Assembly: GCA_963693115.1 (NCBI GenBank) | Contig: OY843750.1 | Location: 1,660,680 to 1,724,679 of the forward strand | DNA from: Spirochaetia bacterium | Lineage (GTDB): Bacteria > Spirochaetota > Spirochaetia > WTKD01 > G963693115 | DNA: 64,000 bases | Direction of reading: 5' to 3' | Part shown: piece by piece, positions 10,544 to 43,492 of the stretch | Position numbering within the stretch: the stretch's first letter is position 1 | Layout: every line of letters begins with the position of its first letter | Made by a program: the position numbers and the translations under genes | The notes under the pieces: generated by a model | The model's database searches: none | The model's input: the letters and a program-made list of their open reading frames with translations, nothing else | What the model was told of the DNA's origin: nothing

Positions 10544-10564
10544 GGCTTAACTATTTGGGGGTCA

Positions 10565-11902: not shown

Positions 11903-11930
11903 ACCATAACAAGTACGTAAAGGACAACCT

Positions 11931-18360: not shown

Positions 18361-18444
18361 ATCTTTTAAGTATATCAGCCTTGATGTATTATTGAACGCG
18401 CGTCAAACATTAAAAAAAAATTTATAGTATAATTGAATATACTT

Positions 18445-19926
18445 ATGGGAAGCAACGCACTCAATCTCACGCAAGGCAATATACTCAAACATATACGAGC
18501 AATAGCTGTCCCTGCAATTATAGGCAGTATTTTTCAAACTCTGTACAACCTCACCGACACCTTTTGGGCCGGCCAACTTTCATCTAGTTCTCTTGCAGCA
18601 ACAGGGCTCGTGTTTCCCTTGTTCTTAATCGCCATGTCAATATCCCAAGCTATTGCAGGCGGAACCATGGTACTCGTAAGCAACGCAATTGGAGCAAAAC
18701 AAGAAAAAAAGGCTGCTCACTATCAGGAACAAGCTTTTAGCTTAGGAGTGGTATTTGGCACCATACTTGCGGTATTCACCTGGTATATAGTACAAACCTT
18801 CTTTTCTGCACAGAATGTTTCGGGTCAAGTTTTAGGAGACGCCATCGCATATGCTCGTGCAATTGGGGTCGGATTTCCTTTTATGGTAGTGCAAGCTGCG
18901 CTCGGTGTAGCGCTGATGAGTCGTGGCGATACAAAGTTTATGCGCAACGTCATGATACTGAATGCATTCATCAATGTTGGACTTGATCCACTGCTCATGT
19001 ATGGCTGGAACATTGCTGGAATTGTTATTATCCCACGCATGGGTGTTGCGGGTATTGGACTTGCGACAAGTTTTGTGCAAGTATTAGGAACCATACTCCT
19101 GCTTAGAAAGGTGTATAAAGAACGGTATTTTGTTCCTAAAACGCTAAAAAGTCTCATACCCATATACAAAACTAGTCACGAAATATTTAAGTACGGGCTC
19201 CCTTCTTTTGTACAACTTGCATTAGTTGGTCTTGGCTTAGGAGTAGTAAACTACTTTCTTTACAATCTCAATGGTCCAAATGCAACTGCAGCCTATACTG
19301 TAGGACTACGAATAGAACAATTTGCACTTGTACCCACAATGGGGCTTAATATTGCACTTTCGGCCTTGGTAGGACAAAACAATGGCGCCCGTAGAATTGA
19401 TAGGATACGCGAGTCATTTAGGCTCTGCTTGCTTTTGGCTCTTGCATTGCTTGGGCTCATGATACTGGTACGTATCTTTGCTCACTTTATTCTTATTCCC
19501 TTTACTCGTGACGCTGAGGTTATTATGATTGCTAAGCAGTACCTCACTTTCGCTGTCTTTATTTTCTATGCGTATCAACTCATGTTTCAAGCATCTGGTT
19601 TATTACAGGGGCTAAAACGTCCGCTTATCCCGATTATTATGGTCTCAGTGAGGCAGTTAGTATTCCCGTTTATCTTTATCCCCATTTTTGCCTATGCACT
19701 TGATTGGGGCTACTTGGGCGTATTTACCTCTGTTGCATGTTCCGCTTGGATTACTGCAATTGTATTATTTGTATTTGCACGCAAAAAGCTCCTTGCTCGA
19801 GAAATAGAATGTAAACAAGAGCCTCCCACAGAACCTGATATTCCCCCCACTCCACAGAAAATAAATAGTAGCATTATTTCAAAACCTGCCCTTTCTCCTG
19901 CCACCAGTACAAAAAAGAAGGTATAA
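18445..19926 (+). CDS. MATE-family efflux transporter
   Basis: A 12-TM-like protein with the MATE N-terminal pattern IAVPAIIGSIFQTLYNLTDTFWAG. The start is set at the first ATG (18445). The track start at 18433 is a TTG. Confidence 0.8.
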   Translation: MGSNALNLTQGNILKHIRAIAVPAIIGSIFQTLYNLTDTFWAGQLSSSSLAATGLVFPLFLIAMSISQAIAGGTMVLVSNAIGAKQEKKAAHYQEQAFSLGVVFGTILAVFTWYIVQTFFSAQNVSGQVLGDAIAYARAIGVGFPFMVVQAALGVALMSRGDTKFMRNVMILNAFINVGLDPLLMYGWNIAGIVIIPRMGVAGIGLATSFVQVLGTILLLRKVYKERYFVPKTLKSLIPIYKTSHEIFKYGLPSFVQLALVGLGLGVVNYFLYNLNGPNATAAYTVGLRIEQFALVPTMGLNIALSALVGQNNGARRIDRIRESFRLCLLLALALLGLMILVRIFAHFILIPFTRDAEVIMIAKQYLTFAVFIFYAYQLMFQASGLLQGLKRPLIPIIMVSVRQLVFPFIFIPIFAYALDWGYLGVFTSVACSAWITAIVLFVFARKKLLAREIECKQEPPTEPDIPPTPQKINSSIISKPALSPATSTKKKV

Positions 19927-20128
19927 AGAAAGAAACTTTTCATCTCTCTTATAACTTGACCCTGTTCAAGCCCTAAGACTCTGCTATCAACCCCAAAAAA
20001 TCTGGGAAAGGAGTAGAAAAAAAACAGAGAGAAACCCTAGAAAAGCAGAGAAGAAAAAAAGCCAAAAAAAAACAGGAAAAAATAGGAAAAATAATAGTGT
20101 CGCAGATACAGCAGCACCAAAACAAACG

Positions 20129-21622
20129 CTATTCGATCATTTGTATACGCTTCCACACTCCCATCTTATAACGTATAAAAAATGCTATTCCCATAATCAC
20201 ATCAAACACAATAAACAAAACCCAGGCCTGAAGTGCTTCTCCTGAACCTACAACTACAAGCCAATAGAGTACGCCACCAAACACCACATACAAAATAATA
20301 GACATGATCATGGGAACACGCGTATCTCCTGCTCCACTTAGGGTAGCAGAAAATGTGAGTGTTGCAGCATCAGCAATAAGATATACACTTACTAAGCGAA
20401 CAAATATCAATGCCGTTTCTATAACTTCACTACTATTCTTCATAGTCGGGGTAAACAACTGTATTAGCTGTGGCGTATATACTAACAAAAGAACGCTCAT
20501 GATAACCGCATAGGAGCCCATCAGTGCAAATGACACTCGAACAACTTTTTTACTTTTTTCAATATCCTTTGCTCCTATAAACCGCCCAACGAGCGCCATT
20601 GTTGCATCAAAGGCACCAATCATCGGAAGTATAAATGTACCATCCCAATTCATGGCTATGGACACCGCTGCCCCAACAGTCGGACCATAGGAATACATAA
20701 AGAAAATAAACATAGTAAATACAATAGACCCAATTAGTTCGTGTATGGCATTTGGCACTCCGTATCGGATGAGTTTTTTTGAAATCTCCCAATTCCATCG
20801 TATATTTCGAGTCTCATATTTTTTATGTAGACTATGTCCCAAATACACAGAGAGTAACAGAATCGTAGCAATAAAGGTACTAAGCACGGTTGCGAAAGCA
20901 GCACCTCGCAGGCCTAATTCAGGAAAGGGTCCAAATCCAAAAATCAGGGAATAATTAAGCGGTATATTGATAAGCATTGCAATGAGACTTGCACTCATCA
21001 CCAACTTTGTCCGTCCGAGTGCAGTAAAAAAAGCCGAAAGACCAGCCCGAAGCACAAAAGGAATGCCTCCGTATAAAAGGAGTATACGCGTATATTCGAT
21101 TTCTAGCTTAAGTTGTTGTGCATCATGCCCAAAGAATCTAAAGATATCATCTACACAAAAGCTGAGTAGGACTATCAAAGGATACGCGCATATAGTGAGC
21201 ACCACCAACTGCGAACCAACAGCCCCGCATTTTTTGTGTTCGCGAGCACCAAGATACTGAGAAGCAAGTGCATTGCCGTATTCTACCGTAACCATAAAGG
21301 CAGAGAATATCAAAAAACTCATAAGTCCACCAGAAAAGCTTGCATTAATGAGTAATTCACCCTGTCCCATTTGATAACGAGACAAGAATATCAAGTCAAA
21401 AAAAAGCAATACCTGCTCAGTAAACCGAGATATAATGATGGGCACAGAGAGGGTAAAAAATAAGAAAAAAATAGAGGGATCTTTCTGTGGATCCTTCTGG
21501 GTCTGTGGATGCGACGAGTCAGGAGAACGGGATATATCAGAATAAGGCGATACAGACTGACAGCCTAATGCTTTAGATGATACAAGAGAATCACCTTCCT
21601 GCTTCTCTTTATGAGCGCTCAT
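20129..21622 (-). CDS. MATE-family efflux transporter (downstream member of a tandem pair)
   Basis: Paralogous to 21619..23001. The start is set at MSAHKEK (ATG at 21622-21620). This overlaps the upstream stop as ATGA, which suggests translational coupling. Confidence 0.75.
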   Translation of the reverse strand: MSAHKEKQEGDSLVSSKALGCQSVSPYSDISRSPDSSHPQTQKDPQKDPSIFFLFFTLSVPIIISRFTEQVLLFFDLIFLSRYQMGQGELLINASFSGGLMSFLIFSAFMVTVEYGNALASQYLGAREHKKCGAVGSQLVVLTICAYPLIVLLSFCVDDIFRFFGHDAQQLKLEIEYTRILLLYGGIPFVLRAGLSAFFTALGRTKLVMSASLIAMLINIPLNYSLIFGFGPFPELGLRGAAFATVLSTFIATILLLSVYLGHSLHKKYETRNIRWNWEISKKLIRYGVPNAIHELIGSIVFTMFIFFMYSYGPTVGAAVSIAMNWDGTFILPMIGAFDATMALVGRFIGAKDIEKSKKVVRVSFALMGSYAVIMSVLLLVYTPQLIQLFTPTMKNSSEVIETALIFVRLVSVYLIADAATLTFSATLSGAGDTRVPMIMSIILYVVFGGVLYWLVVVGSGEALQAWVLFIVFDVIMGIAFFIRYKMGVWKRIQMIE

Positions 21623-23001
21623 TTTATCAATGTAATTTTTTTCCACTTGCCTGTAAGGTATCGTAAAAACAGACCTAATCCTAGCATGAAAGCAAAAAGA
21701 ATAAAAATCAACCATACCTGGAGAGGATCAATTTTTTTAATAAATGCAAAATAATAGATCGCTGTGCCAAAGATAAGATAAATAATAATTACAATACACA
21801 TTGCTGCCCGTGTATCCCCAGCGCCACGGAGAGCACCAGAAAATGTTAAATTAGCAGCATCAGCAAAAAGATACACACTGGCAAGACGTACAAAAAGCAC
21901 CGCGAGCGCAGTAACCTCTGGTGTATGGTTCATTTGACTGGTAAAAATACGCACCATACTGGGAGCAAACATAAGAAAACACATCCCTAATATTAAGGCA
22001 TAACTCGCCATCACCATGTATGATATTTTTGCAACACGCTGACTTTTTGCAAGATCTCCTTCGCCTATATACCGACCAAATAACGATGTCGTTGCTGCAC
22101 TTACCCCCACCATGGGCATAAAAAACGTCGAATCCCAGTTTATCGCTATCGTCACGGCAGCTCCTACCGTTGTTCCATAAGAATTCATTACCAATATAAA
22201 AAAATTAAATACCATAGTACCTAAGAACACATCAACTGCACTAGGAGTACCAAAGGTAATTAGTTTTTTTCCTATGTTCCAGTTCCATTTTATAACTCGA
22301 GTCATATAGTCTCTATTAAGAGTATTACTCAGATATACTGCCAGCAGAATAGCAACTCCAATAAAAGCACTTATGACCGAAGCATACGCTGCCCCAGGCA
22401 ACCCCAATTCTGGTAGTATTCCCACGCCAAATATGAGCGCGTAGTTGAGGGGAATATTTACTACCATAGCAATTAAGTTTGATATCATTACCACCTTAGT
22501 TTTTCCTAACCCAATAAATACGCCAGAAAGCCCCCCATTCAGTATAAAGGGGATACCCCCATATACCAATAGTATTCGTGCATACAGTGTTTCGAGAGCA
22601 CGCTGTTCTTGACTATGTCCAAAGAATGAGAAAAAATCCCCAACAAAATAACTCAGAATAAGAACAATAGGATAGAACAAAAGTGTAAGAAAGAAGACCT
22701 GAGATCCAACCATTCCACACATGTATTGTTTTTTTGCCCCCAAATACTGCGCACAGATTGCATTACTATAGCTAACCGTTATCACAAAAAACGAGAGGGT
22801 AACAAAACTCGTTAAGCCACCCGCTAAACTTGAATTTATGAGCAGTTCACCTTGCCCACTACGATACCAGGATAAAAACAACAAGTCAAAAAATAATATG
22901 ATTTTTTGAGTCGACTGCGAAATCATGACAGGCAGAGATAGTCTTAGAAAAAGAGTGAGTAAGGACGGTTCTTTACGCAAGATCAATGCTTCAGTGTTCA
23001 T
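21619..23001 (-). CDS. MATE-family efflux transporter (upstream member of a tandem pair)
   Basis: Polytopic membrane protein that can be aligned by eye with the neighbouring MATE, for example YGGIPF, LGLPGAAYA and SGALRGAGDTR. Confidence 0.8.
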   Translation of the reverse strand: MNTEALILRKEPSLLTLFLRLSLPVMISQSTQKIILFFDLLFLSWYRSGQGELLINSSLAGGLTSFVTLSFFVITVSYSNAICAQYLGAKKQYMCGMVGSQVFFLTLLFYPIVLILSYFVGDFFSFFGHSQEQRALETLYARILLVYGGIPFILNGGLSGVFIGLGKTKVVMISNLIAMVVNIPLNYALIFGVGILPELGLPGAAYASVISAFIGVAILLAVYLSNTLNRDYMTRVIKWNWNIGKKLITFGTPSAVDVFLGTMVFNFFILVMNSYGTTVGAAVTIAINWDSTFFMPMVGVSAATTSLFGRYIGEGDLAKSQRVAKISYMVMASYALILGMCFLMFAPSMVRIFTSQMNHTPEVTALAVLFVRLASVYLFADAANLTFSGALRGAGDTRAAMCIVIIIYLIFGTAIYYFAFIKKIDPLQVWLIFILFAFMLGLGLFLRYLTGKWKKITLIK

Positions 23002-23401: not shown

Positions 23402-26400
23402 TCACCTAAAAAAAGCCCCTGTTCCTTTTAGCACTGTCCCTCCAAAGGTATAACCACCACCAAAAACGAGTACCATAATGTTTTTGTCATTGGGAAAGTA
23501 ACCGTTTTCAATGAGTTCGGTTGTACAAATAGGCACAGTACTTGAAGAGCTGTTACCATGCCTCTCTATACTAGAGTAGAACAGTGAAGGAGCGAGTTTG
23601 AGGCGTTTCTGTACTGCATTAATAATTTTTTGGTTGGCTTGGTGAGCTATTACCATATCTATATCATCAGCACTCAGTCCATGCATATCAAGCAAACGAT
23701 AGTACATGTTCATGAGTTCTGCGATAGCAGTTTTATACACATGAACACCATCCATAGAAATATATCCTTTATCTGGCACCACGAGCTTTTCTGAAGGCTC
23801 ACCGCGGGTAAGCAATATTGGCTCAGTAACATTCGCAAATCCCTTAGATGCAAGTGGATGCTTTGCACCACATACGAGAGTGGCAGTCGCGGCATCAGAA
23901 AAGACTGCCGATGTCTGCCTATCGGTAACGTCTACAAAGGGCGAGAGTACCTCCGATGTCACCACTAATACTAACTCATTAGGGTGGAGTACAAGATGCT
24001 GATATACCTCTTTAAGAGCAAATACATAGCCCGAGCATGCAGCAGATACATCGTAGGCAAAATTATCCTCCTGATGAGTATCAAATTCTGTATTGAGCAA
24101 GTATTGCACATGTGCTGCGAGCGAAGGTGTTTTAGTCGTATGTGTACCCGTTGCACAGACAATACCAGACACCTCTCGAAAGGAAATATCAAGAGAATGT
24201 AAAACTTTGCGCGAAGCATCAAATGCCATTGTTATAGTGTTTTGCGCCTCACTTACCCAATGTCGATGCTTAATACCGGTGCTCTGAACAATCTGCTCCT
24301 CACTCCAGTCCGATATTATGTTGATAAGGTCGGCATTGGTGAGAATCTTTTCTCCTAATGAGATATCACTTCTTACAAGTTTAGGACAACGAGACATGTG
24401 TTCTATTGATCCAAACTCTGCTAACGAAGTCTCGTGATCATTATGCGTATCTGAAGGACTTCCCAATATTCCTGCGGAATCACTACTATCGTGCTTCTTT
24501 TTGAGGGGTGTAATAGTAACGAGGCCTAGTTCTTCACGTGTTAGGGTTTTAAAACTCGCCTCATCACTCGTAAGATGGGCAATGCTCGTTCCTACAGGTA
24601 CAGTATCACCTTCTTCATACAATAATTTTTTTACTGTTCCTTTGACGGTAGTACTGAGTTCTATGGATGCTTTGTCAGCTTCAAGTTCTGCAATCACTTG
24701 CCCAACTTCGACCTCATCGTCTTCTTTTATCTTCCACTCAATAATTGTGACCGACTCGTCAGAAGGGCTTGATCCTATAGCAGATATAACATTGGTATTT
24801 TCTTCTGATTCTGAGATATCCTCAAACTGGACACTTGCTTCGCACATAGCTGCAATCGTCTCTATGGTGCCTTTAAGAGAAGGGAGAATCTCTAATTGAT
24901 TTTCAAAATTAAAGGGAACAAAGGTGTCGCTCCGTGCATAGCGCCTCACCTGCACCCCTTCCGTATGTTCTGCAATACGCGCTACAATCTCTGCCCCAAC
25001 ACCAAGCGAGATATTGCCCTCGTGAATTACGAGTGCCTTTTTGGTCTTATTGACACTATTGTATATTGATTCATAGTCTACGGGACTTATGCTTCTAAGA
25101 TCCAGTACTTCTAGTGAGATGCCTACTTTAGAAAAATAATCAGCAGCTGCTAACCCAAAATATACTGTATTTCCGTAGGCAATCACCGTAAGGTCCTTAC
25201 CAGATGTTAGTACACGAAGGCTCGCTGGAGCTACATAGTGGGTCGCTATATCTCTTTTAGAAATAAGATACTGTTTGGTATTGAGCTGGTTCTTAGGATA
25301 AAAAAATATGCAGGGGCGCTCTGACTCAAATGCGGTGTTGAGAAGCCCCGCAGCGTCTTGTGCATTGGATGGTATATACACATCTAAGCCAGGTATATGC
25401 GATGAAAATCCCTCCATGGAAGCAGCATGAAAAGGCCCAAGACCTGGTCTATACCCACCATAGGTTGCCATGATAATGAGCGGGCAATTCCATTCACCGG
25501 CGGTACGCCAGTGAATACTTGCAAGCTCGCTGTATATCTGATTAAATGCTATAGGAAAAAAATCAGCAAACTGCAAAAAAGCAACAGGACGCTTGCCTAC
25601 AAGCGCTTTTCCTATTGAACTCCCAAGAATGAGAGCTTCACTCAGGGGGCTGTTTTTAACTTTTCCAGGAAACTGGCTTGAAAGCCCTTTGGTAACCCCA
25701 AACACGTCACCCTTTGGATCTTCAAGGTCTTCTCCATAAAGCTCAACGTTCTTGTTTTTCTTGAGCCAGCTACGAAGTACTTCTCTTATAGCTTTTAGCA
25801 TGGTGAGCGCATCGTCATCGTCCTTTGGCTCTTGCAATGTGGGTACACGTGCGAGCGTATCACTAAAACTGGGAGACAAGTCTCTACGAGCATGGAATGC
25901 CGGTTGTGGAGTACCCACACGCTGACTCTGGTGTGCAATGGGACGTAATTCTTTAATTTTTGCGGTAATTTTTTCAAAAAATAGCGTATCAACATCGGTA
26001 TCGGGATAGAAAGACTGTATTGCAAAGCGTATGGGATCACTACCACTTTTTAAGTTTTCTATTTCTTCTTTGGAACGATATACAAGATGGTCATCAGCAT
26101 TCGTATGACTTTCCAATCGCTGCGTATGATAGACAACTATCTCTGGTTCTCTTGTCGTGCGTATTGCGTCGACAGTCTGTGAAAACTGATTGTGAAGTCC
26201 TTCTATATCAGATCCCTTGACATGTCGTATTGTTTTGCCAAGCAATTCTTTTATCAAGCCATCTTGCGTATTATAAAATGTTTTTTTGACAGTAGAAGTA
26301 GAGATTGCAAATTCGTTGTCTTGTATAAGGAACAAGACTGGTAATTTTTCAAGTAGTGCATGGATAATAGCATTATGAAACTCAGCTTGTTGTGTTGCGC

Positions 26401-26833
26401 CTTCGCCCAAAGAACATAATACCAATGGGGCTTCTTTTTTCTGCTTTATCGCTTCTGCTATTCCAACAGCCTGAAGCGCATTATTACCAACGGGCGCCAC
26501 CATACTCAGTATCCGAGCAGGTGCATAACTGACATGCGGATTCATCTGCCTTCCCTTTGATACTGAAGCGCTATTACTAAAAAGCGCATCAAAAAAGTGC
26601 TTGGGCGTCATTCCTCTTGCGAGTAGCAAAGCCTTGTCCCTGTAATGACAATGCAGGTAATCCTGCTTTATAAGGTAAGGCGCGAGAAACACATTGCTCT
26701 CATGACCCGCAGATGATACGTGAAAAAATGCTTCGCCACGTTGCGTATACTCCTTCTCCAAGAAGTCAATCGCACGGGTTGTTACCATATGGTCAAGCAA
26801 AGCAAGGTTTGTATTAGAAGAAATCTCTGACAT
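23402..26833 (-). CDS. fusion protein: 2-oxoacid dehydrogenase E1 alpha, E1 beta, lipoyl domain and 3-oxoacyl-ACP synthase III (FabH-like)
   Basis: The E1alpha TPP motif is GEGATQQAEFHNAI..LPVLFLIQDNEFAIST. The E1beta motif is FLQFADFFPIAFNQI. The lipoyl-lysine motif is ELEADKASIEL. The KAS III triad contexts are SAACSGYVFAL (Cys), VIAHQANQKII (His) and HGNSSSSTVPI (Asn). It is one uninterrupted 1143-codon ORF. Confidence 0.8.
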   Translation of the reverse strand: MSEISSNTNLALLDHMVTTRAIDFLEKEYTQRGEAFFHVSSAGHESNVFLAPYLIKQDYLHCHYRDKALLLARGMTPKHFFDALFSNSASVSKGRQMNPHVSYAPARILSMVAPVGNNALQAVGIAEAIKQKKEAPLVLCSLGEGATQQAEFHNAIIHALLEKLPVLFLIQDNEFAISTSTVKKTFYNTQDGLIKELLGKTIRHVKGSDIEGLHNQFSQTVDAIRTTREPEIVVYHTQRLESHTNADDHLVYRSKEEIENLKSGSDPIRFAIQSFYPDTDVDTLFFEKITAKIKELRPIAHQSQRVGTPQPAFHARRDLSPSFSDTLARVPTLQEPKDDDDALTMLKAIREVLRSWLKKNKNVELYGEDLEDPKGDVFGVTKGLSSQFPGKVKNSPLSEALILGSSIGKALVGKRPVAFLQFADFFPIAFNQIYSELASIHWRTAGEWNCPLIIMATYGGYRPGLGPFHAASMEGFSSHIPGLDVYIPSNAQDAAGLLNTAFESERPCIFFYPKNQLNTKQYLISKRDIATHYVAPASLRVLTSGKDLTVIAYGNTVYFGLAAADYFSKVGISLEVLDLRSISPVDYESIYNSVNKTKKALVIHEGNISLGVGAEIVARIAEHTEGVQVRRYARSDTFVPFNFENQLEILPSLKGTIETIAAMCEASVQFEDISESEENTNVISAIGSSPSDESVTIIEWKIKEDDEVEVGQVIAELEADKASIELSTTVKGTVKKLLYEEGDTVPVGTSIAHLTSDEASFKTLTREELGLVTITPLKKKHDSSDSAGILGSPSDTHNDHETSLAEFGSIEHMSRCPKLVRSDISLGEKILTNADLINIISDWSEEQIVQSTGIKHRHWVSEAQNTITMAFDASRKVLHSLDISFREVSGIVCATGTHTTKTPSLAAHVQYLLNTEFDTHQEDNFAYDVSAACSGYVFALKEVYQHLVLHPNELVLVVTSEVLSPFVDVTDRQTSAVFSDAATATLVCGAKHPLASKGFANVTEPILLTRGEPSEKLVVPDKGYISMDGVHVYKTAIAELMNMYYRLLDMHGLSADDIDMVIAHQANQKIINAVQKRLKLAPSLFYSSIERHGNSSSSTVPICTTELIENGYFPNDKNIMVLVFGGGYTFGGTVLKGTGAFFR

Positions 26834-26951: not shown

Positions 26952-27590
26952 CTACTCTACCTTTTCAAAAATATAGCCCGATGGTGACTTAGTGTAAGCT
27001 ATACCTCGCATTCTTTTTGTAATACTCGCTTTAGTAGGCGCAATTCCGCTCTTAGGAATGAGGTAGGTGTCTAAATTTGTGCTGGTAATGCTGAATATTG
27101 TATCTGTTCGCCTTGTATACACTGCAATTAGCCTATACGCGGTATCTAAGGATGCCATTGATGCATCTCCATGAGAATTGTTACATACGAGTAAGCCTCC
27201 TTTTTTTAAGGAATGCTTGACTGCCTGTCCAACAAATCCTGCATACTGCGAAATAACAAGGTCAAATGCTGAGATCAGGTCTGTAAGAGGTTCATAATAA
27301 TCCTGCAAGTAAAATCGTATCGTGGGAGGAACCGTATATTCTTTATAAGCGCAAATAAACTGGTATACTTGTGGGTCATCAAAAAATTTTTTTGCTGTTT
27401 TATGCGAATCAAGATACATGACCTCTGGAAATACTATCGAAGGAGTAATGTGTACGTAAGATCCAGGATATAAGACCTTGATGTTCTCACCCCAGGTAGT
27501 ACAAAGTAGTCGAAATAAGCCTATGGAGCTATAGTTTTTGTCAAGGTGATGGTATTGGTACAGTGAAGGAATCTTTATGCTATTGCACAT
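26952..27590 (-). CDS. probable class I SAM-dependent methyltransferase-like protein
   Basis: Rossmann-like motifs VLYPGSYVHITPS, FDLVISQYAG and LKKGGLLV. The assignment is pattern-level only. Confidence 0.4.
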   Translation of the reverse strand: MCNSIKIPSLYQYHHLDKNYSSIGLFRLLCTTWGENIKVLYPGSYVHITPSIVFPEVMYLDSHKTAKKFFDDPQVYQFICAYKEYTVPPTIRFYLQDYYEPLTDLISAFDLVISQYAGFVGQAVKHSLKKGGLLVCNNSHGDASMASLDTAYRLIAVYTRRTDTIFSITSTNLDTYLIPKSGIAPTKASITKRMRGIAYTKSPSGYIFEKVE

Positions 27591-28412: not shown

Positions 28413-30599
28413 CTATTGTTCTGCCCATACTGGTATTTCTGTAATACCTGACTCTTGAAACATCTCCTTCATATCTGTCACATTACTCACATCCCATTCC
28501 CCTATGTCTTGGTTAAACTTGCTTGCTTTATAGAACATATAACTCATATCTGCTACATTGCCCACATCCCATCCCCCTATATCTTGATCAAATTTACTCG
28601 CTCCACCAAACATTATTTTCATATCTGTCACATTACTCACATCCCATCCTCCTATGTCTTGATTAAACTCACTCGCTTCAAAAAACATAGCACTCATGTT
28701 TGTTACATTACTCACATCCCATCCCCCTATATCTTGGTTAAACTCACTCGCTTCAAAAAACATACCTCTCATATCTGCCACTTTGCTCACATTCCATCTC
28801 CTTATATCTTGGTTAAATTCACTCGCTCCACCAAACATATAACTCATCTTTGTCACTTTGCTCACATCCCATCCCCCTATATCTTGGTTAAACTCACTCG
28901 CTTCAAAAAACATACCTCTCATATCTGCCACTTTGCTCACATTCCATCTCCTTATATCTTGGTTAAATTCACTCGCTCCACCAAACATATAACTCATCTT
29001 TGTCACTTTGCTCACATCCCATCCTCCTATGTCTTGATTAAAGTCATCCGCTTCTTCAAACATCCTACTCATATCTGTCACGTTGTTTACATCCCATCTC
29101 CCTATGTCTTGGTTAAAGTCAAGCGCTTCGTCAAACATACTATTCATATTTGTAACCTTGCTCACATCCCATTCCCCTATATCTTGATTAAATTTACTTG
29201 CGACAAGAAACAACTTCTGCATATCTACTACGCTACTCACATCCCATCCTCCTATATCTTGATTAAACTCACTTGCTCCACCAAACATATAACTCATATC
29301 TGTCACGTTACTCACATCCCACCCCCCTATGTCTTGATCAAATGCACTTGCTTCTAAGAACATATAACTCATATCTATCACCTTGCTCACATCCCAGCTC
29401 CCTATGTATTGATTGAAGTCAAGCGCTTCATAGAACATATCAGCCATATCTATCACATTGCTCACATCCCATCCCCCTATGTCTTGATTAAATTTACTCG
29501 CTTTGCTGAACATCACACTCATATCTGTCACATTGCTCACATCCCAACCTCCTATGTCTTGATTAAACTCACTTGATCCACCAAACATTCCTCTCATATC
29601 TGTCACACTACTCACAGCCCATCTTCCTATGTCTTGGTTAAATGCACTCGCTTCAAAAAACATTATTCCCATATCTGTCACATTGCTCACATCCCAACCT
29701 CCTATGTCTTGATTAAACTCACTTGATTTAGCAAACATTCCTCTCATATCTTTTACATTACTCACATTCCATCCTCCTATGTCTTGATTAAAGTCATCCG
29801 CTTCTTCAAACATCCTACTCATATCTGTCACGTTGTTTACATCCCATCTCCCTATGTCTTGGTTAAAGTCAAGCGCTTCGTCAAACATTCTATTCATATT
29901 TGTAACCTTGCTCACATCCCATTCCCCTATATCTTGATTAAATTTACTTGCGACAATAAACAACTCCCGCATATCTACTACGCTACTCACATCCCATCCT
30001 CCTATGTCTTGATTAAACTCACTTGCTCCACCAAACATATAACTCATATCTGTCACGTTACTCACATCCCACCCCCCTATGTCTTGATTGAACACGATCG
30101 CTTCAATGAACATACTACGCATATTTACCACGTTACTCACATCCCACCCCCCTATGTCTTGATTGAACTCACTTGCTCCAGCAAACATATAACTCATATT
30201 TGTCACTTTGCTTACATCCCACCCCCCTATGTCTTGATTGAATCCTATCGCATCTTCAAACATACTGCTCATATTTTTCACACCACTCACATCCCAACAT
30301 GAGATATCTCCGTTGAAATTCTCCTTACCTATAAACAATTCACTCATATCGGTAATTCTACTGGTGTCTATGCTATTTAAGTCTGCTGTCGAATCTTGTT
30401 TTATTAGCTCTTCTATGGCTACTTTTAATGATTCTTTATTATCTACTGTGGTTGTGGGAACAGGGCATGATCTTGCATCTGCTTTCTCACCTGTGAGTGC
30501 TTTGCTCTCCTGTGCTCTTGCTTCATTTGTACTCACTATCATTACTATTCCTAAAAACAATAGTGCTATGCTACTTTCTTTTTTGTATTGTATTTTCAT
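28413..30599 (-). CDS. secreted DUF285/BspA-type leucine-rich-repeat surface protein (728 aa)
   Basis: The signal peptide ends ..NEARA/QE. A conserved N-terminal domain is followed by tandem 25-aa units [25 protein letters not shown]. The C-terminal motif is [12 protein letters not shown]. Confidence 0.85.
28711..29010. repeat. perfect 150-nt tandem duplication (two copies) inside the 28413..30599 gene
   Basis: By direct reading, 28711-28860 and 28861-29010 are identical. Each copy spans two 75-nt repeat units. Confidence 0.9.
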
Positions 30600-30791
30600 G
30601 TATTAGTTTTCCTCCTTTTGTCTATGGTTCCTATACCCAATAATTAATATGAGAGAATTGCAATCTTACCATCCTGCATTTTTAGCCACTTACCTTATCT
30701 GTCCTGGTCTCCTCATCTCTTGCTTATCTTTATACATACACCATACCTTGATTAGTTTCATAGCTATGCTATTTTTTACTCTATCTCTGCT

Positions 30792-33659
30792 TTACTGTTC
30801 TACCCATGCAGGTATTTCTGTAATACCTGATCCTAGAAACATCTCCTCCACATCTGTCACCTTACTCACATCCCATTCCCCTATGTCTTGGTTAAATGCT
30901 AAGGCATAACGAAACATAGCCGTCATATCTATCACCTTACTCACATTCCATCCCCCTATGTCTTGATTAAAGTCAAGCGCTTCAATGAACATACCAGCCA
31001 TATCTATCACCTTGCTCACGTCCCATCTCCCTATATCTTGGTTAAAATCACTCGTTCTATTAAACATATAACTCATATCTCTCACATTGCTCACATCCCA
31101 TCCCCCTATATCTTGATTAAAGACTATCGCTTCCCTGAACATATAACTCATATTTGTCACCTTATTCACGTTCCATCTCCCTATGTCTTGATTAAAGTCT
31201 CTCGCTTGGTTGAGCATACTTTTCATATTTTTCACATTACTCACATCCCATCCCCCTATGTCTTGATCAAATTCACTTGCTTTTATGAACATATAACTCA
31301 TATCTATCACATTGCTCACATCCCATCCCCCTATGTCTTGATTAAAGACTATCGCTTCCCTGAACATATAACTCATATTTGTCACCTTATTCACGTTCCA
31401 TCTCCCTATGTCTTGATTAAAGTCTCTCGCTTCGTTTAGCATACTTTTCATATTTTTCACATTACTCACATCCCATCCCCCTATGTCTTGATTAAAGACT
31501 ATCGCTTCCCTGAACATATAACTCATATTTGTCACCTTATTCACGTTCCATCTCCCTATGTCTTGATTAAAGTCTCTCGCTTCGTTTAGCATACTTTTCA
31601 TATTTTTCACATTACTCACATCCCATCCCCCTATGTCTTGATCAAATTCACTTGCTTTTAAGAACATATAACTCATATCTATCACATTGCTCACATCCCA
31701 TCCCCCTATGTCTTGATTAAAGACTATCGCTTCCCTGAACATATAACTCATATTTGTCACCTTATTCACGTTCCATCTCCCTATGTCTTGATTAAAGACT
31801 ATCGCTTCATAGAACATACCCCTCATGTTTGTTACATTATTCACGTCCCATCCCCCTATATCTTGGTTAAATTTACTCGCTCCGCTGAACATATAACTCA
31901 TATCTGCCACCTTGCTTACATCCCATCCCCCTATGTCTTGATTAAAGTCAAGCGCTTCAATGAACATACCCCTCATGTTTGTTACATTATTCACGTCCCA
32001 TCCCCCTATATCTTGGTTAAATGCTCTCGCTCCGCTGAACATATAACTCATACCTGCCACCTTGCTCACGTTCCATCTCCCTATGTCTTGATTAAAGTCA
32101 AGCGCTTCAATGAACATTCCGCTCATATCTGTCACATTGCTCACATCCCATCTCCCTATGTCTTGATTAAAGACTATCGCTTCGTTGAGCATACTTTTCA
32201 TATTTTTCACATTGCTCACATCCCATCCTCCTATATCTTGATTAAACATACTCGCTCCACTAAACATACTACTCATATCTGTCACCTTACTCACATCCCA
32301 TCCCCCTATGTCCTGATTGAATTTACTTGCGAAGTAAAACATTTCATTCATATATCTTACATTGCTCACACCCCATCCTCCTATATCTTGATTAAATTCA
32401 AGCGCTTTATAGAACATACCACTCATTTTTCTCACGTTACTCACATCCCATCCCCCTATATCTTGGTTAAACTCACTCGCTCCTCTAAACATCTCCCGCA
32501 TATCTCTCACATTACTCACATCCCATCCTCCTATGTCCTGATTAAAATCTCTCGCTCCTCTAAACATCTCCCGCATATCTCTCACATTACTCACATCCCA
32601 TCCTCCTATGCCTTGATTAAATGCATTCGTTTCGCTGAACATCTTCCTCAAATTTTTCACACTACCCACATCCCACCCCCCTATATCTTGATTAAATACA
32701 CTCGTCCCTCTAAACATCTCCCTCATATCTGTCACATTACTCACATCCCATCTCCCTATATCTTGGTTAAATTTTTCCGCTCCATTGAACATATAACTCA
32801 TAGCTGTTACATTACTTACGTCCCATTCTTCTATATTTTGATTAAACGTACTCGCTCCTCTAAACATCTCCCTCATATCTGCCACCTTATTCACATTCCA
32901 TCCCCCTATGTCTTGGTTAAACGCACCCGCTTCTCTAAACATACCACTCATATTTGTCACCTTGCTCACATCCCACTTTCCTATGTTTTGGTTAAATGCA
33001 TTCGTTTCTCGGAACACACCCCACATATTTGTCACGTTACTTACATCCCATTCCCCTATATCTTGGTTAAATGCATTCGTTTCTTGGAATATCCCCCCCA
33101 TATCCACCACGTTGCTCACATCCCATCCCCCTATGTCTTGGTTAAACTCACTTGCTCCTCTAAACATATAACTCATATCTACTACACTACTCACATTCCA
33201 TTCTCCTATGTCTTGATTGAATTTACTTGCTTCACTGAACATATCACTCATATCTGTCACATTGCTCACATCCCATCCTCCTATATCTTGGCTAAACTCA
33301 CTCGCATTTTCAAACATACCGCTCATATTTGTCACATTGCTCACATTCCAGCATGAGATGTCTCCGTTGAAGTATTCAATATCCATAAACAACTCACTCA
33401 TATCGGTAATTCTACTGGTGTCTATGCTGTTTAAGTCTGCTCTCGTGTCTTGTTTTATTAGCTCTTCTATGGCTACTCTTAATGATTCTTTATTATCTAC
33501 TGTGACTGTGGGTGTGGGTGTGGGACATGATCTTGTATCTGCTTTCTCACCTGTGAGCGCTTTACTCTCCTGTGCTCTTGCTTCATTTGCACTCACTATC
33601 ATTACTATTCCTAAAAATAATAGTGCTATGATACTTTCTTTTTTGTATTGTCCTTTCAT
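30792..33659 (-). CDS. secreted DUF285/BspA-type repeat surface protein (955 aa)
   Basis: Same architecture as 28413..30599. The C-terminal motif is [12 protein letters not shown]. Confidence 0.85.
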   Translation of the reverse strand: MKGQYKKESIIALLFLGIVMIVSANEARAQESKALTGEKADTRSCPTPTPTVTVDNKESLRVAIEELIKQDTRADLNSIDTSRITDMSELFMDIEYFNGDISCWNVSNVTNMSGMFENASEFSQDIGGWDVSNVTDMSDMFSEASKFNQDIGEWNVSSVVDMSYMFRGASEFNQDIGGWDVSNVVDMGGIFQETNAFNQDIGEWDVSNVTNMWGVFRETNAFNQNIGKWDVSKVTNMSGMFREAGAFNQDIGGWNVNKVADMREMFRGASTFNQNIEEWDVSNVTAMSYMFNGAEKFNQDIGRWDVSNVTDMREMFRGTSVFNQDIGGWDVGSVKNLRKMFSETNAFNQGIGGWDVSNVRDMREMFRGARDFNQDIGGWDVSNVRDMREMFRGASEFNQDIGGWDVSNVRKMSGMFYKALEFNQDIGGWGVSNVRYMNEMFYFASKFNQDIGGWDVSKVTDMSSMFSGASMFNQDIGGWDVSNVKNMKSMLNEAIVFNQDIGRWDVSNVTDMSGMFIEALDFNQDIGRWNVSKVAGMSYMFSGARAFNQDIGGWDVNNVTNMRGMFIEALDFNQDIGGWDVSKVADMSYMFSGASKFNQDIGGWDVNNVTNMRGMFYEAIVFNQDIGRWNVNKVTNMSYMFREAIVFNQDIGGWDVSNVIDMSYMFLKASEFDQDIGGWDVSNVKNMKSMLNEARDFNQDIGRWNVNKVTNMSYMFREAIVFNQDIGGWDVSNVKNMKSMLNEARDFNQDIGRWNVNKVTNMSYMFREAIVFNQDIGGWDVSNVIDMSYMFIKASEFDQDIGGWDVSNVKNMKSMLNQARDFNQDIGRWNVNKVTNMSYMFREAIVFNQDIGGWDVSNVRDMSYMFNRTSDFNQDIGRWDVSKVIDMAGMFIEALDFNQDIGGWNVSKVIDMTAMFRYALAFNQDIGEWDVSKVTDVEEMFLGSGITEIPAWVEQ
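31321..31620. repeat. perfect 150-nt tandem duplication (two copies) inside the 30792..33659 gene
   Basis: By direct reading, 31321-31470 and 31471-31620 are identical. Related but imperfect higher-order copies flank them between about 31080 and 31800. Confidence 0.9.
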
Positions 33660-33860
33660 GTATTAATTATCCTCTTTTTATCCATGGTCTCTATAACCCA
33701 GAAATTTATGTGAGAGAATTGTAGCCTTGCCATCCTGCAACTATTAACTACATTCATCGACAACTACCCCTATTGAATTTTCTACCTCTTGCTTATCTTT
33801 GTACACACACGATACCTTGATTAGTTTCATAACTACACTATTTTTTAGCCTAACACTGTT

Positions 33861-34940
33861 CTACTGTTCTGCCCATGCAGGTATCTCTGTAATACCTGAC
33901 CAAAGAAATATATAGCTCATATCTGTCACATTACTCACATCCCATCCCCCTATGCTTTGATTAAATTCATTCACGTCTGACCTCAATACTCTATTAGCAC
34001 TACTAATAGTACTACCAAAAGTTACTCCAGAGAACATCCAGCCCATACTTATGACATTACTCACATTCCATCCTCCTATGTCTTGGTTAAACTCTCTTGC
34101 CACACTAAACATTCCATTCATATCTGTCACATTACTCACATCCCATCCCCCTATATCTTGATTAAATTCTTTCGCTTCACTGAACATTTCTGCCATATCT
34201 GTCACATTACTCACATCCCATCCCCCTATGTTTTGATTAAATTCTATCGCTCCGCTAAACATGCTACTCATATTTATTACCTCACTCACATCCCATCCCC
34301 CTATGTCTTGATTAAACGCACTCGCTCCTCTAAACATTCCGCTCATGTCTGTAACATTGCTCACATTCCACCCTCCTATGTCTTGATTAAATTCACTTAC
34401 GCCTATCGTCCATTCTCTATATTTACTATGAAAGCTTACTCCAGAGAACATCCACTCCATACTTGTCACATTACTCACATTCCATCTCCCTATATCTTGA
34501 TTAAATTCTCTCGCTCCGCTAAACATTCCACCCATATTTGTTACATTGCTCACATTCCACCCTCCTATGTCTTGATTAAATTCTCTCGCCCCACTGAACA
34601 TGCTACTCATATTTGTTACCTCACTCACATCCCAACATGAAATATCTCCGTTAAAGTGCTCCATACCCATAAACAACTCACTCATATCGGTAATTCTACT
34701 GGTATCTATGCTGTTTAAATCTGCTATCAAGTAGTCTTGTTTTATTAGCTCTTCTATGTTTGCTTTTAATAATTCTTTGTTATCTACTGTGATTGTAGGA
34801 ACAGGACATGATGTTATATCTGCTTTCTCATTTGTGAGTGCTTTACTCTCCTGTGCCATTGCTTCATTTGCACTCACTACCATTACCATTCCAAAAAACA
34901 ATAGTGGTATGATGCCTTCTTTTTTGTATTGTCTTTTCAT
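33861..34940 (-). CDS. secreted DUF285/BspA-type repeat surface protein (359 aa)
   Basis: Has the same signal peptide, N-terminal domain and repeats. Two repeats carry loop insertions. The C-terminal motif is [12 protein letters not shown]. Confidence 0.85.
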
Positions 34941-35021
34941 GTATTAGTTCTCCTCCTCTTATCTACGGTCTCTATACTCGGAGATTTCCGCTTTTAATCT
35001 CGTATAGTATAAGCATAGTTA

Positions 35022-37245
35022 TTACTTCTTTGTTTTAGATTCTAAATAGTCTATTGTAGGTTTCCATAGGTTAAGAAGTTCACCTATTGTTGGATCTCGG
35101 TAATGTTTATTTGTCTCTGTTGCTCCAATTCGTTTCAAATTATATTTAGTATCATTCACGATTATATCTTCTACTTTTTTTGCAGTAATTGCAGCACGTA
35201 CATGATTGCCGACTATTGTTCCTATAAATTCTCCCGCAACAACTGAATCTCCTTCTGTCAGTTCATCTTTAGGATTAATATATATGATAGACACTTGGGT
35301 ACCATCATTTCCTGTAATATGTACTTTGTCGGTCTCTACAAATTTTACATATCCATTAATCATAGCACCTATTTTCTTTCCATGACTAGCGTTTATTTTT
35401 TCTTCTTCATCGGTTTTCATTCCTACACCATAAAAATAAATTGCTGTATCCGTTCCAAGATGACGGTGACGATTTTCTCTTGGCTCATGTGTGTGGTTAT
35501 TTCCTACATAACTAGTAATTACAATGTTCCAGTTGTGAACCAAGCTAATGCTAGCAAGGTCTCTTGATTCTTTTTCATTGCTCACATCCCATTCCTCTAT
35601 GTCTTGATTAAATTCTCTCGCTCCGCTAAACATTTTACTCATATCTCTCACATTACTCACATCCCACTTCCCTATTTTTTGATTGAATTCAATCGCTTCA
35701 CTGAACATACCCTCCATATTTCTCACCTTACTCACATCCCATCTCACTATATCTTGGTTAAACACATTCGCTCCGCTAAACATTTTACTCATATCTCTCA
35801 CATTACTCACATCCCACTTCCCTATGCTTTGATTAAATTCAATCGCTTCACTGAACATACCCTCCATATTTCTCACCTTACTCACATTCCATCCTCCTAT
35901 GTCTTGATTAAATTCTATCGCTCCGCTAAACATATAGCTCATATCTATCACATTACTCACACCCCACTCTCCTATCCCTTGATTGAATTCAATCGCTTCT
36001 TCAAACATCCTACTCATATATCTCACGCTACTCACGCCCCATCTCCTTATGTCTTGATTAAATTCTTTCGCTCCGCCAAACATTTTACTCATATCTCTCA
36101 CACTACTCACATCCCATCCCCCTATGTCTTGATTAAACTCATTCGATCCGCTAAACATTTTACTCATATCTCTCACATTTCTCACATCCCATCCTCCTAT
36201 GTCTTGATTAAACTCATTCGATCCGCTAAACATTCCACTCATGTCTGTTATATTACTCACATCCCATCCCCCTATGTCTTGATTAAATGCATTCGCTTCT
36301 CTAAACATTCCACCCATGTCTCTTACATTGCTCACATCCCATCCTCCTATGTCTTGATTGAATTCACTCGTTCCACCTAACATCCAACTCATATTTGTCA
36401 CGTTACTCACATCCCATCCCCCTATATCTTGATTAAACTCACTCGCTTCTCTAAACATTCCACTCATGTCTGTTACATTGCTCACGTCCCATCCCCCTAT
36501 GTCTTGATTGAATTTACTCGTTCCACCTAACATCCAACTCATATTTGTCACGTTACTCACATCCCATCCCCCTATATCTTGGTTAAACTCACTCACTCCT
36601 CTAAACATCTCTCTCATATCTCTCACATTGCTCACATCCCATCCTCCTATGTCTTGATTAAATTTCCACGCACTACTAAACATACTGCTCATATCTGTCA
36701 CATTGCTCACATCCCATCCCCCTATGTCTTGGTTAAAAGCGAAGGCGTAATGAAACATCTTTTCCATGTCTCGTACATTGCTCACATCCCATCCTCCTAT
36801 GTCTTGATTAAAACGCATTCGCTTCTTCAAACATTCTACTCATATCTGTCACATGGCTCACATCCCATCCCCCTATCTCGTGATTAAATTCTTTCGCTCC
36901 GCTGAACATACTACTCATATCTGTCACATTGCTCACATCCCAACATGAGATATCTCCATTGAAGTTCTCCATATCCACAAATAACTCACTCATATCGGTA
37001 ATTCTGCTGGTATCTATGCTGTTTAAATCTGCCGTTGAGCCTTGTTTTATTAGCTCTTCTATGGCTACTTTTAATGATTCTTTGTTATCTACTGTGGTTG
37101 TGGGGGTGGGGCATGATTTTGTATCTGCTTTTTCACCTGTGAGCGCTTTGCTCTCCTGTGCTCTTGTTTCATTTGCATTCACTATCATTACTATTCCTAA
37201 AAAAAATAGTGCTATGATGCCTTTGTTTTTGTATCGTATCTTCAT
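35022..37245 (-). pseudogene. DUF285 repeat protein with a C-terminal M23/LytM-like module, split by a +1 frameshift at 36810-36813
   Basis: ORF 36808..37245 encodes the signal peptide, N-terminal domain and first repeats. ORF 35022..36830 encodes repeats plus a 184-aa non-repeat C-terminus. The two overlap in different frames. The plus strand reads ttaaaacgcattcgcttcttc here, whereas intact paralogous repeats (for example near 38790) read ttaaacgcattcgcttcttc. Confidence 0.75.
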
Positions 37246-37446
37246 GTATTAGTTTTCCTCCTTTTTGTCTATGGTCTCTATAACCAAATAATTAGAGTGA
37301 GAGCATTGTAGCCTTGCCATCCCGCAATTATTAACTACACTCATCGGCAACTACTCCTATTGAGTTTTCTACCTCCTTTTTGTTTTGTAGTTACACCATA
37401 CCTTGATTAGTTTCATAGCTATGCTATTTTTTACTCTATCTCTGCT

Positions 37447-42922: not shown

Positions 42923-42990
42923 TATTACTCCTCACTGTTTGTATGCCTGTTACGCAGAGTGCGTAAGTACATACACGTACACACATTTTT

Positions 42991-43356
42991 TCAGTCCAAA
43001 GTCTTCTTGTACTCTTCTTCGCTTAATAGCGAATCACACTCACTGGGATCTGACATATCGATTATTATAAACCACGAATCGCCTGACTCCCTATCATTGA
43101 TTATAGAGGGGTCTTCGATAGCTTTGGTATTCAATTCTACCACTTTTCCAGAGACAGGTGCGTATACGTCGGATGCAGCCTTAACCGATTCTACTACGAT
43201 AATGGCATCTCCTTTTTTGACTTCCTGATCTAATTTTGGAAGCTCTACATACACTACATCACCGAGCTCTTGTAAGGCGTGATCGGTAATGGTGAGCTTT
43301 GCTTTGTTGTTGTCAACCGCAATGCATTCATGGGTTTTTGCAAAATATTTATACAT
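42991..43356 (-). CDS. gcvH: glycine cleavage system H protein
   Basis: Contains the lipoyl-lysine motif VESVKAASDVYAPVSG. It is 121 aa. Confidence 0.92.
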   Translation of the reverse strand: MYKYFAKTHECIAVDNNKAKLTITDHALQELGDVVYVELPKLDQEVKKGDAIIVVESVKAASDVYAPVSGKVVELNTKAIEDPSIINDRESGDSWFIIIDMSDPSECDSLLSEEEYKKTLD

Positions 43357-43492
43357 ATATTCCTCCTGTATACGATGTTAATGTGATTTTATAATTTTCT
43401 TGTTTCTCATGGTGTGCTTCGTTCTTGGCTAAAGTATCTGATTTTTTTACATACTGGCTTATCATTATTCTGTTATATCTTTACCTATGTAT

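Follow-up and report, generated by a model that had tools for sequence, protein, structure and literature searches.

A fused E1–lipoyl–FabH protein predicted to prime fatty-acid synthesis from 2-oxoacids without coenzyme A

We analysed a 64,000-nucleotide stretch of a Spirochaetia bacterium (assembly GCA_963693115.1, contig OY843750.1, positions 1,660,680 to 1,724,679; hereafter the window) that carries a gene whose 1143-residue product joins, in one chain, the E1alpha and E1beta parts of a 2-oxoacid dehydrogenase, a lipoyl domain, and a FabH-type β-ketoacyl-acyl carrier protein (ACP) synthase III (KAS III). Judging from its sequence, we see a somewhat better than even chance that this protein primes fatty-acid synthesis independently of coenzyme A (CoA), with E1 loading the lipoyl-lysine of its own chain, the lipoyl arm passing the acyl group to the KAS III cysteine, and condensation with malonyl-ACP following. 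The modules are all familiar; what appears to be new is the predicted hand-off from lipoyl arm to ketosynthase, together with a remodelled donor site in the FabH-type domain. To our knowledge, a lipoyl arm serving as acyl donor for any KAS has not been described.

Architecture and catalytic residues of the fused chain

The gene is a single, uninterrupted open reading frame (ORF) on the minus strand that spans exactly 23402-26833 of the window, from an ATG at 26831-26833 to a stop codon at 23402-23404 (1143 amino acids plus stop). Read on the plus strand, the same coordinates contain stops throughout the frame. All features of the fused chain given below are on the minus strand. A preliminary description of this DNA had already proposed one uninterrupted ORF for a chain of E1alpha, E1beta, lipoyl domain, and KAS III. 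The ORF call matches it exactly and adds the strand, the peptide strings that it cited are all located in the translation, and its domain reading proved right wherever Pfam, PDB matches, and Foldseek provided a test. Pfam places six domains along the chain in the expected order: E1_dh (residues 15-269, E = 3e-32), Transket_pyr (342-518, E = 2e-24), Transketolase_C (540-648, E = 7e-25), Biotin_lipoyl (694-754, E = 4e-16), ACP_syn_III (927-989, E = 4e-14), and ACP_syn_III_C (1048-1136, E = 8e-23). Within the same chain, Pfam finds neither the E2 catalytic core (2-oxoacid_dh, PF00198) nor a peripheral-subunit-binding domain.

The TPP (thiamine pyrophosphate)-binding E1alpha region (residues 15-269, 26027..26791, from the Pfam E1_dh match) carries the TPP/Mg motif G143-E-G145 ... 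D172-N173 (codons 26399-26407 and 26315-26317). In an alignment to the E1alpha subunit of human branched-chain 2-oxoacid dehydrogenase (BCKDH), GEGA (143-146) and DN (172-173) correspond to GEGA and NN, and the catalytic histidine, His243 (26105-26107), corresponds to His291 (RLESHTNADD in the window protein, RIGHHSTSDD in the human enzyme). The E1beta region that follows is made up of the Transket_pyr and Transketolase_C domains (24890..25810). When it is aligned to E1beta of the Geobacillus stearothermophilus pyruvate dehydrogenase (PDH; 3duf_B, E = 5e-52), Glu399 (25637-25639) falls on the Glu of PLAES and His469 (25427-25429) on the His of ELHSDS, which we take to be the TPP-activating Glu59 and the catalytic His128 in the numbering of 1W85. 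The modelled E1beta part superimposes on 1w85_B with a Foldseek template-modelling (TM) score of 0.94.

The lipoyl domain (residues 680-755, 24569..24796) is found by Pfam and is modelled as a beta-barrel with a predicted local distance difference test (pLDDT) score of 80-96. Its predicted lipoyl-lysine, Lys721, sits in an E-A-D-K-A motif (codon 24671-24673). The preliminary description had followed this domain with a single Ser/Asp-rich linker of roughly 60 residues, of which only the second part stands as a linker. The first part is a conserved motif, KTLTREELGLVTITP (residues 762-776, 24506..24550), that follows the pattern K-x-x-T-R-E-E-x-G-x-P-x-I-T; it is near-invariant among spirochaete homologues and is modelled as a beta-strand with pLDDT about 76-80. 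The second part is a Ser/Asp-rich flexible linker of about 29 residues (780-808, 24410..24496), which lies immediately before KAS III and is the sole segment of the model with pLDDT below 50. Across homologues, 24 to 53 residues lie between the conserved motif and the start of KAS III.

The KAS III domain (residues 826-1136, 23426..24358) is recognised as FabH-like by Pfam, NCBIfam, PDB matches, and Foldseek. Its catalytic triad consists of Cys933 (24035-24037), His1064 (23642-23644), and Asn1094 (23552-23554), which align to Cys112, His244, and Asn274 of E. coli FabH. An AlphaFold2 model of the whole chain, built on 120 homologues, has a mean pLDDT of 89.8 and a predicted TM-score (pTM) of 0.72, and its KAS III part matches FabH structures with Foldseek TM-scores of 0.92-0.95. 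A Foldseek search of the PDB returns no entry that spans the whole chain, with a best query-normalised TM-score of 0.39.

Residue conservation and gene neighbourhoods were counted in the best 80 loci of the 578 confirmed genome matches to the fused family (hereafter the 80 homologues). Eleven residues are present in all 80: G143, G145, N173, H243, E399, H469, K721, C933, H1064, N1067, and N1094. The TPP residues and the Cys/His/Asn contexts named in the preliminary description are thus correctly aligned in every homologue, and on these sequence grounds the modules look catalytically competent. In the post-lipoyl motif, Thr is found in 63/80 and Glu in 71/80 homologues. Just before the lipoyl domain, position 670 is Trp in 79/80 and Phe in the window protein. 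In the model, this position and the motif each belong to an additional beta-strand beside the lipoyl barrel. These two elements might dock to E1, to E3, or to KAS III.

The KAS III domain lacks the CoA adenine clamp and retains the ACP site

FabH binds its acyl-CoA donor through a small set of residues. In the E. coli enzyme, the adenine of CoA is hydrogen-bonded by Thr28 and stacks between Trp32 and Arg151, and Arg36 and Asn247 contact the pantetheine arm (PMC4606726). We compared these positions in the 80 homologues and in eight diverse stand-alone FabH proteins taken from annotated records, most of them in plsX-fabH-fabD type contexts. We also followed Arg249, which Zhang et al., in JBC in 2001, reportedly described as the ACP-docking residue of E. 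coli FabH.

All eight stand-alone proteins have Thr28 (within a TSDEW motif), Trp32, and Arg151, and all eight have Arg249. The fused family, in contrast, has lost the clamp: Thr is not kept at position 28; Trp is found at position 32 in none of the 80 homologues, where Asp (49), Ala (14), Glu (7), and others take its place; and position 151 is occupied by Pro (22), Phe (19), Gln (13), or Tyr (7) in 61/80, with others in the rest. The positions of Cys112, His244, Asn247, and Asn274 are each conserved in 80/80 homologues, as they are in the stand-alone set, and the Arg249 position is R in 75/80 and K in 4/80. The window protein has an Asp843-equivalent at Thr28, Gln847 at Trp32, Arg972 at Arg151, and Lys1069 at Arg249.

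The same division is seen in a wider census of representatives of 1.84 billion proteins. Among KAS III domains with more than 120 residues in front of them, Trp32 is present in 2/65; among stand-alone KAS III representatives, Trp32 and Arg151 are each present in 61/75, and the exceptions resemble fragments of fused genes. A neighbour-joining tree places 78 of 79 clamp-less sequences in one clade that is free of clamp-bearing FabH. By sequence, the fused KAS III is a distinct clade in which the residues predicted to serve Cys acylation, malonate decarboxylation, and ACP docking are kept and those for CoA-nucleotide recognition are gone.

Profile and database matches agree with a FabH relative that stands somewhat apart. 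Residues 826-1136 reach 244.4 bits with the NCBIfam FabH model NF006829, a near miss of its cut-off of 249, and TIGR00747 gives 211.2 bits, below its cut-off of 292.1. In the PDB, the domain is closest in sequence to FabH of H. influenzae (E = 1.7e-43) and E. coli (E = 1e-40), and the match to PqsD (3h76, E = 1.6e-21) is much weaker.

Two further differences in this domain were considered and set aside. A change from Phe87 to Thr had suggested a widened primer pocket and was dropped, as stand-alone FabH proteins often have Thr, Ser, or Met there too. We make no claim that a Trp found in the family at position 843 substitutes for Trp32, as it lies four residues upstream and occurs in only 53/80 homologues.

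Variants with a fused or adjacent ACP

Three relatives have an ACP linked to the KAS III end of the protein. The largest, P0297 (locus L090, 10001-15829; JAKOSN010000236.1 in GCA_029777335.1), has 1942 residues arranged as E1alpha-E1beta-lipoyl-KAS III followed by a ketoreductase (KR) domain and an ACP, with about 250 residues unassigned. Its first 1100 residues are 51% identical to a Pirellulaceae member of the family, and in place of E-A-D-K-A its lipoyl site has E-A-S-K-S. P0281 (locus L092, 633-3288) is an 803-residue E1beta-lipoyl-KAS III protein whose stop codon is overlapped by an 83-codon gene for a phosphopantetheine-binding protein (ACP); no E1alpha coding sequence is found in the 630 nucleotides upstream. 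P0300 (locus L091, 18-1621) is a lipoyl-KAS III fragment at a contig end, and an 81-codon ACP gene comes directly after it. The adenine clamp is absent from all three. As each carries an ACP that is either fused or directly downstream, these variants tie the KAS III end of the architecture to an ACP, and the KR and ACP that follow KAS III in P0297 tie that protein to a 3-keto product that needs reduction. By its domain content, this minor branch with KR and ACP does look like a polyketide synthase (PKS).

Distribution and age of the family

We searched 5.8 billion proteins and scanned one genome per species across 185,579 species. The protein search returns more than 120 clusters of proteins of 1090-1190 residues that have all six domains of the window protein and are 43-48% identical to it, and the species-representative scan returns more than 599 pattern matches, of which at least 578 are confirmed. 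In the best 80 loci, the match to the window protein extends from residue about 1-19 to residue 1106-1142. The preliminary description did not recall this four-module architecture as having been characterised. We likewise found no published study of an E1–lipoyl–FabH architecture in full-text literature, accession numbers included, although subscription-only papers lie outside that scope and may hold prior work; the architecture itself, with its many genome matches, is not rare.

The bulk of the family is found mainly in Spirochaetota (Alkalispirochaeta, Oceanispirochaeta, Marispirochaeta), Planctomycetota (Pirellulaceae, Rhodopirellula), and Kiritimatiellae (Pontiella, Kiritimatiellales). It also occurs in single metagenome-assembled genomes labelled Sumerlaeota, Nitrospirales, Armatimonadia, Gammaproteobacteria, and Xenococcus. 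One member is WP_013314750.1 of Spirochaeta (Winmispira) thermophila. Some members carry no annotation beyond 'beta-ketoacyl-ACP synthase 3', 'thiamine pyrophosphate-dependent enzyme', or '2-oxoisovalerate dehydrogenase E1 component'. The window fused protein is itself absent from the 5.8-billion-protein collection, where its best match is 48% identical, and the glycine-cleavage protein GcvP of the same window is present at 100%, which may reflect how the collection was built.

Mean pairwise identity among the 80 homologues is 0.52 for E1alpha, 0.62 for E1beta, 0.48 for the lipoyl domain, 0.49 for KAS III, and 0.10 for the linker. The pairwise-identity matrices of the four domains are correlated with one another at r = 0.69-0.89, which indicates that the fusion is inherited as a unit. 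From these sequence comparisons, we conclude that the fusion is old and has been passed on as one piece.

Genomic context

Neighbouring genes were compared by all-against-all clustering of the flanking ORFs in the 80 loci. No conserved neighbour encoding an E2, an E3, an ACP, a lipoate ligase, or a Fab protein is found in these loci. The recurrent neighbours are lineage-specific and none is functionally linked: an aconitase-like gene in 21/80, a PtsP-like gene in about 12, and MsrB in 12. No second KAS III gene or ACP gene is found in the flanks of the 80 loci, except for an AcpP gene about 4 kb away in one of them (L021), where it sits beside pta-ackA and not in a fab cluster. Given this lack of conserved neighbours, the fused gene resembles a housekeeping gene that stands on its own, not a member of a biosynthetic cluster.

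Among the 38 further long ORFs of the window that were scanned, no E2 core, E3, ACP, or Fab protein is encoded. Together with the Pfam analysis of the chain, this agrees with the earlier statement that the window holds no E2 core and no E3. A gcvT-gcvH-gcvP operon lies at 39983-44644 on the minus strand; its GcvH has a lipoylation site (VESVKA), and its GcvP is a single chain of 979 residues. The operon shows that protein lipoylation takes place in this organism and that it requires a dihydrolipoamide dehydrogenase. Beyond the 100% entry mentioned above, the best relatives of this GcvP are only about 60% identical, and those with names are mostly from Alphaproteobacteria (Rhizobiales). This affinity differs from that of the fused gene, which is to Spirochaetia, and the operon may have been acquired horizontally.

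Directly upstream of the fused gene, across a gap of 118 nucleotides, is an ORF of 212 residues (26952-27590, minus strand) with no Pfam match. By eye it has the look of a class I methyltransferase, and it is not conserved beside the fused gene elsewhere. Just downstream of the fused gene are three MatE-family efflux genes (18433-23001), two of which are in tandem on the minus strand (20129-21715 and 21619-23001) with an overlap of 97 nucleotides. Six genes for DUF285 repeat proteins (359-955 residues with 4-12 repeats each), five of which form a paralogue cluster, lie on the minus strand at 28413-39453 and 45214-46554. Across 28-40 kb, the plus-strand GC skew is extreme, at -0.40 to -0.53, compared with about -0.02 to -0.17 in the rest of the window. 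A mannitol/phosphotransferase system (PTS) sugar-utilisation cluster, at about 9173-14570, includes a multidomain PTS protein of 879 residues with the order EIIA - HPr - Enzyme I (11931-14570, plus strand).

Discussion

The intact residues of the fused chain suggest how a self-contained primer synthase for type II fatty-acid synthesis could work. The fused E1alpha-E1beta would decarboxylate a 2-oxoacid via TPP and reductively acylate the lipoyl group on Lys721 of its own chain. In what would be the novel step, the acyl-dihydrolipoyl arm would then enter the KAS III tunnel and acylate Cys933 directly, with neither an E2 core nor CoA taking part. The conserved His and Asn and the ACP-docking Arg/Lys suggest that the acyl-Cys933 enzyme would next react with malonyl-ACP to give a 3-oxoacyl-ACP, which would pass into elongation. 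A free dihydrolipoamide dehydrogenase, whose presence we infer from the gcv operon in the window, would re-oxidise the dihydrolipoyl arm. The net reaction would be 2-oxoacid + malonyl-ACP + NAD+ → 3-oxoacyl-ACP + 2 CO2 + NADH, without an acyl-CoA intermediate. The enzyme is probably a homodimer, given the known quaternary structures of the E1 and FabH families, which such an arrangement would suit by combining an alpha2beta2-like E1 with a dimeric FabH. A tethered-domain mechanism also fits the model, in which the only disordered stretch is the 29-residue tether before KAS III. The preliminary description had proposed that the lipoyl arm hands its acyl group to the KAS III cysteine and bypasses CoA; the loss of the clamp, the retention of the triad and of Arg249, and the ACP-linked variants all favour this, and the mechanism is one that we infer.

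The most likely substrates are pyruvate and/or 2-oxoisovalerate. The gene is found in the Pontiella and Kiritimatiella lineages, and published profiles of Pontiella and Kiritimatiella list the fatty acids i-C12:0, i-C14:0, i-C18:0, and C18:0, with no odd-numbered or anteiso species. Such a profile fits isobutyryl and acetyl primers only, which would derive from 2-oxoisovalerate and pyruvate. This match is a correlation at the level of lineages. The idea of a Rosetta-stone fusion between a branched-chain dehydrogenase and FabH, also put forward in the preliminary description, holds insofar as the two activities are fused without an E2 core; as for the E1 part, which it took to be a BCKDH, pyruvate is an equally possible substrate.

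Several observations weigh against the proposed mechanism or against a uniform substrate. The E1 halves point in different directions, since E1beta has its nearest match in the G. stearothermophilus PDH and E1alpha in the BCKDHs of T. thermophilus and human, and the NCBIfam equivalog models for PDH, BCKDH, and acetoin E1 components all score far below their cut-offs. In Pirellulaceae, most fatty acids are straight-chain, and clades may therefore differ in their substrate. E1beta and the lipoyl domain are joined by a short tether of 17-19 residues. The window protein still has an Arg at the Arg151 position, and has Ser for Arg36 and Lys for Arg249. Across the family the pantetheine-contact positions are largely retained (Arg36 is R in 64/80, Asn247 in 80/80), which may be explained by the need of a lipoyl arm or an ACP for the same residues. 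Finally, the loss of the adenine clamp, read from sequence, only makes the use of acyl-CoA less likely.

The retained pantetheine contacts bring up another account, in which the fusion would merely co-localise ordinary steps for co-regulation or channelling: a separate E2 and E3 would make acyl-CoA, and KAS III would use it as FabH does. All domains do resemble their canonical counterparts, and Arg36 and Asn247 are mostly kept. We nevertheless consider this account improbable, since the CoA-adenine residues are lost clade-wide, an E2 gene is linked to the fusion in none of the 80 loci, and Pfam detects no peripheral-subunit-binding domain. We also know of no way in which a lipoyl domain set apart from an E2 core would present its acyl group to that core. 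The missing E2 core can be turned into a different argument, that KAS III replaces it as a transacylase alone and moves the acyl group from the lipoyl arm via Cys933 to CoA or holo-ACP, with another ketosynthase carrying out the condensation; the protein would then be a minimal 2-oxoacid dehydrogenase. FabH has an intrinsic acyl-CoA:ACP transacylase half-reaction, and the ACP-docking residue is retained in the family. This too seems unlikely to us. His1064 and Asn1094 (with Asn1067), which serve decarboxylation and condensation and not thioester exchange, are invariant in 80/80 homologues and in the 120-sequence alignment, the loss of the clamp disfavours CoA as acceptor, and the variant with KR and ACP implies a 3-keto product.

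A role in specialised metabolism, with a DarB/OleA/PqsD-like enzyme or a PKS starter module making a 3-oxo or 3-hydroxy acid, a signal, or a lipid head-group, draws on the minority branch that is PKS-like (P0297) or has a dedicated ACP (P0281, P0300), on analogous E1/lipoyl loading in Streptomyces assembly lines and in the Qnc system, and on the NCBIfam FabH score that falls just under its cut-off. For the ACP-linked minor branch such a role is plausible. For the main family we give it only a small chance: the 80 loci have no conserved neighbours or cluster context, the family is found in small genomes (1.1-2.4 Mb) besides large ones, and its KAS III is far nearer to FabH than to PqsD. The DarB/OleA/PqsD-like alternative raised in the preliminary description is accordingly disfavoured there. 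It is barely credible that an assembly error or a frameshift produced the long ORF from separate E1, lipoyl, and fabH genes, or that the gene is a pseudogene in decay, because the same collinear chain of 1090-1190 residues recurs in more than 120 clusters and at least 80 genomes, several of them at chromosome level, and is inherited as a unit. The catalytic residues are also all intact, and the whole chain is modelled confidently (pLDDT 89.8). CoA-independent priming by way of the lipoyl arm is the reading that we carry forward.

Each half of the chain has well-characterised relatives. The KAS III shares the thiolase fold of FabH from E. coli (1HN9), H. influenzae (3IL3), S. aureus (1ZOW), and B. 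subtilis (FabHA and FabHB, 8VD9 and 8VDB), as well as the triad, Asn247, the Arg249 position, and the predicted product, a 3-oxoacyl-ACP. E. coli FabH is about 32% identical to the fused KAS III by tblastn, and Foldseek alignments to FabH structures give 27-31%. FabH is a free protein of about 320 residues, whereas the KAS III of the family is the C-terminal domain of an E1-lipoyl chain; FabH has the Thr28/Trp32/Arg151 clamp, whereas the family lacks it and forms its own clade; and the donor is acyl-CoA for FabH but is proposed to be the lipoyl-lysine arm for the family. With the E1 components of PDH and BCKDH (1W85, 1UM9, 1DTW), the chain shares the TPP/Mg motif, the alpha His, the E1beta Glu and His, and the DKA motif of the lipoyl domain. 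In those complexes alpha and beta are separate and the lipoyl domain is on E2, while in the family alpha and beta are fused and the lipoyl domain is attached to E1beta, no E2 core or peripheral-subunit-binding domain is found, and there is no operon with E3.

The nearest characterised logic is that of the Qnc and Scl systems, the original Qnc work being reportedly that of Peng et al. in PNAS in 2012. QncN/QncL/QncM and SclQ1-4 are thiamine diphosphate (ThDP)- and lipoyl-dependent and make glycolicacyl-S-ACP for non-ribosomal peptides (PMC6335953). As in our proposal, the acyl group is placed on a lipoyl arm by an E1-like module and reaches a carrier protein without CoA, and QncL is itself an E1beta-lipoyl fusion. 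QncL, however, keeps an E2-type acyltransferase for the transfer to ACP, whereas the family has no PF00198 domain. The Qnc system also uses a ketose-phosphate donor, has no ketosynthase in the chain, and is found in a biosynthetic cluster with a dedicated ACP, whereas the main family has no adjacent ACP gene.

A related arrangement is present on a Streptomyces xanthii plasmid (NZ_CP061282.1; locus L089, 5971-14238), where a fused E1alpha/beta protein of 670 residues is directly followed by a megasynthase whose N-terminal part has the order lipoyl - E2 catalytic - ACP - ketosynthase (KS). This cassette adjoins genes like those for p-aminophenylalanine biosynthesis, and similar pairs are found on other Streptomyces plasmids. 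It looks like a loading module of the 2-oxoacid-dehydrogenase type for a line of PKS and non-ribosomal peptide synthetase (NRPS) enzymes. Its E1alpha/beta protein is 32% identical to residues 2-754 of the window protein, and it resembles the family in that a lipoyl domain is fused to an acyl-accepting synthase and the acyl group ends on a ketosynthase. The cassette differs in having an E2 core and an in-cis ACP before a KS-I/II (PKS) ketosynthase, where the family has a KAS III and neither of the two, and its context is secondary metabolism. Other initiators of type II fatty-acid synthesis include FabY, malonyl-ACP decarboxylase with FabB/F, and P. putida FabB (PMC10869286). They likewise depart from the textbook start with acetyl-CoA and FabH, but they draw on acetyl-CoA or on decarboxylated malonyl-ACP, and none of them couples the oxidation of a 2-oxoacid through a lipoyl arm.

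The loss of Thr28/Trp32/Arg151 offers a sequence signature with which two kinds of KAS III can be separated in genome annotation, and the hypothesis is directly testable with one recombinant protein. The fusion could also serve as a compact, single-gene module where branched primers are to be supplied from 2-oxoacids by engineering. If our proposal is true, a ketosynthase can take its acyl group from a lipoyl swinging arm in place of CoA or pantetheine, and there is a further initiation route beside FabH, FabY, and malonyl-ACP decarboxylase/FabB. The proposal would also account for straight-chain and iso-even priming in some anaerobic saccharolytic lineages. Should the fused protein be the sole FabH-type enzyme of the lineages that carry it, their membrane-lipid priming would be wired directly to the pools of pyruvate or branched 2-oxoacids and to the NAD+/NADH balance, and not to the acyl-CoA pool. 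Some of the lineages that carry the gene, namely Pirellulaceae, Pontiella/Kiritimatiellae, and free-living spirochaetes, are abundant in the environment. We put at about even the chance that this is a previously unrecognised CoA-independent route in which the lipoyl arm replaces acyl-CoA as ketosynthase donor, and that many Spirochaetota, Pirellulaceae, and Kiritimatiellae may have no FabH-type enzyme other than the fused protein.

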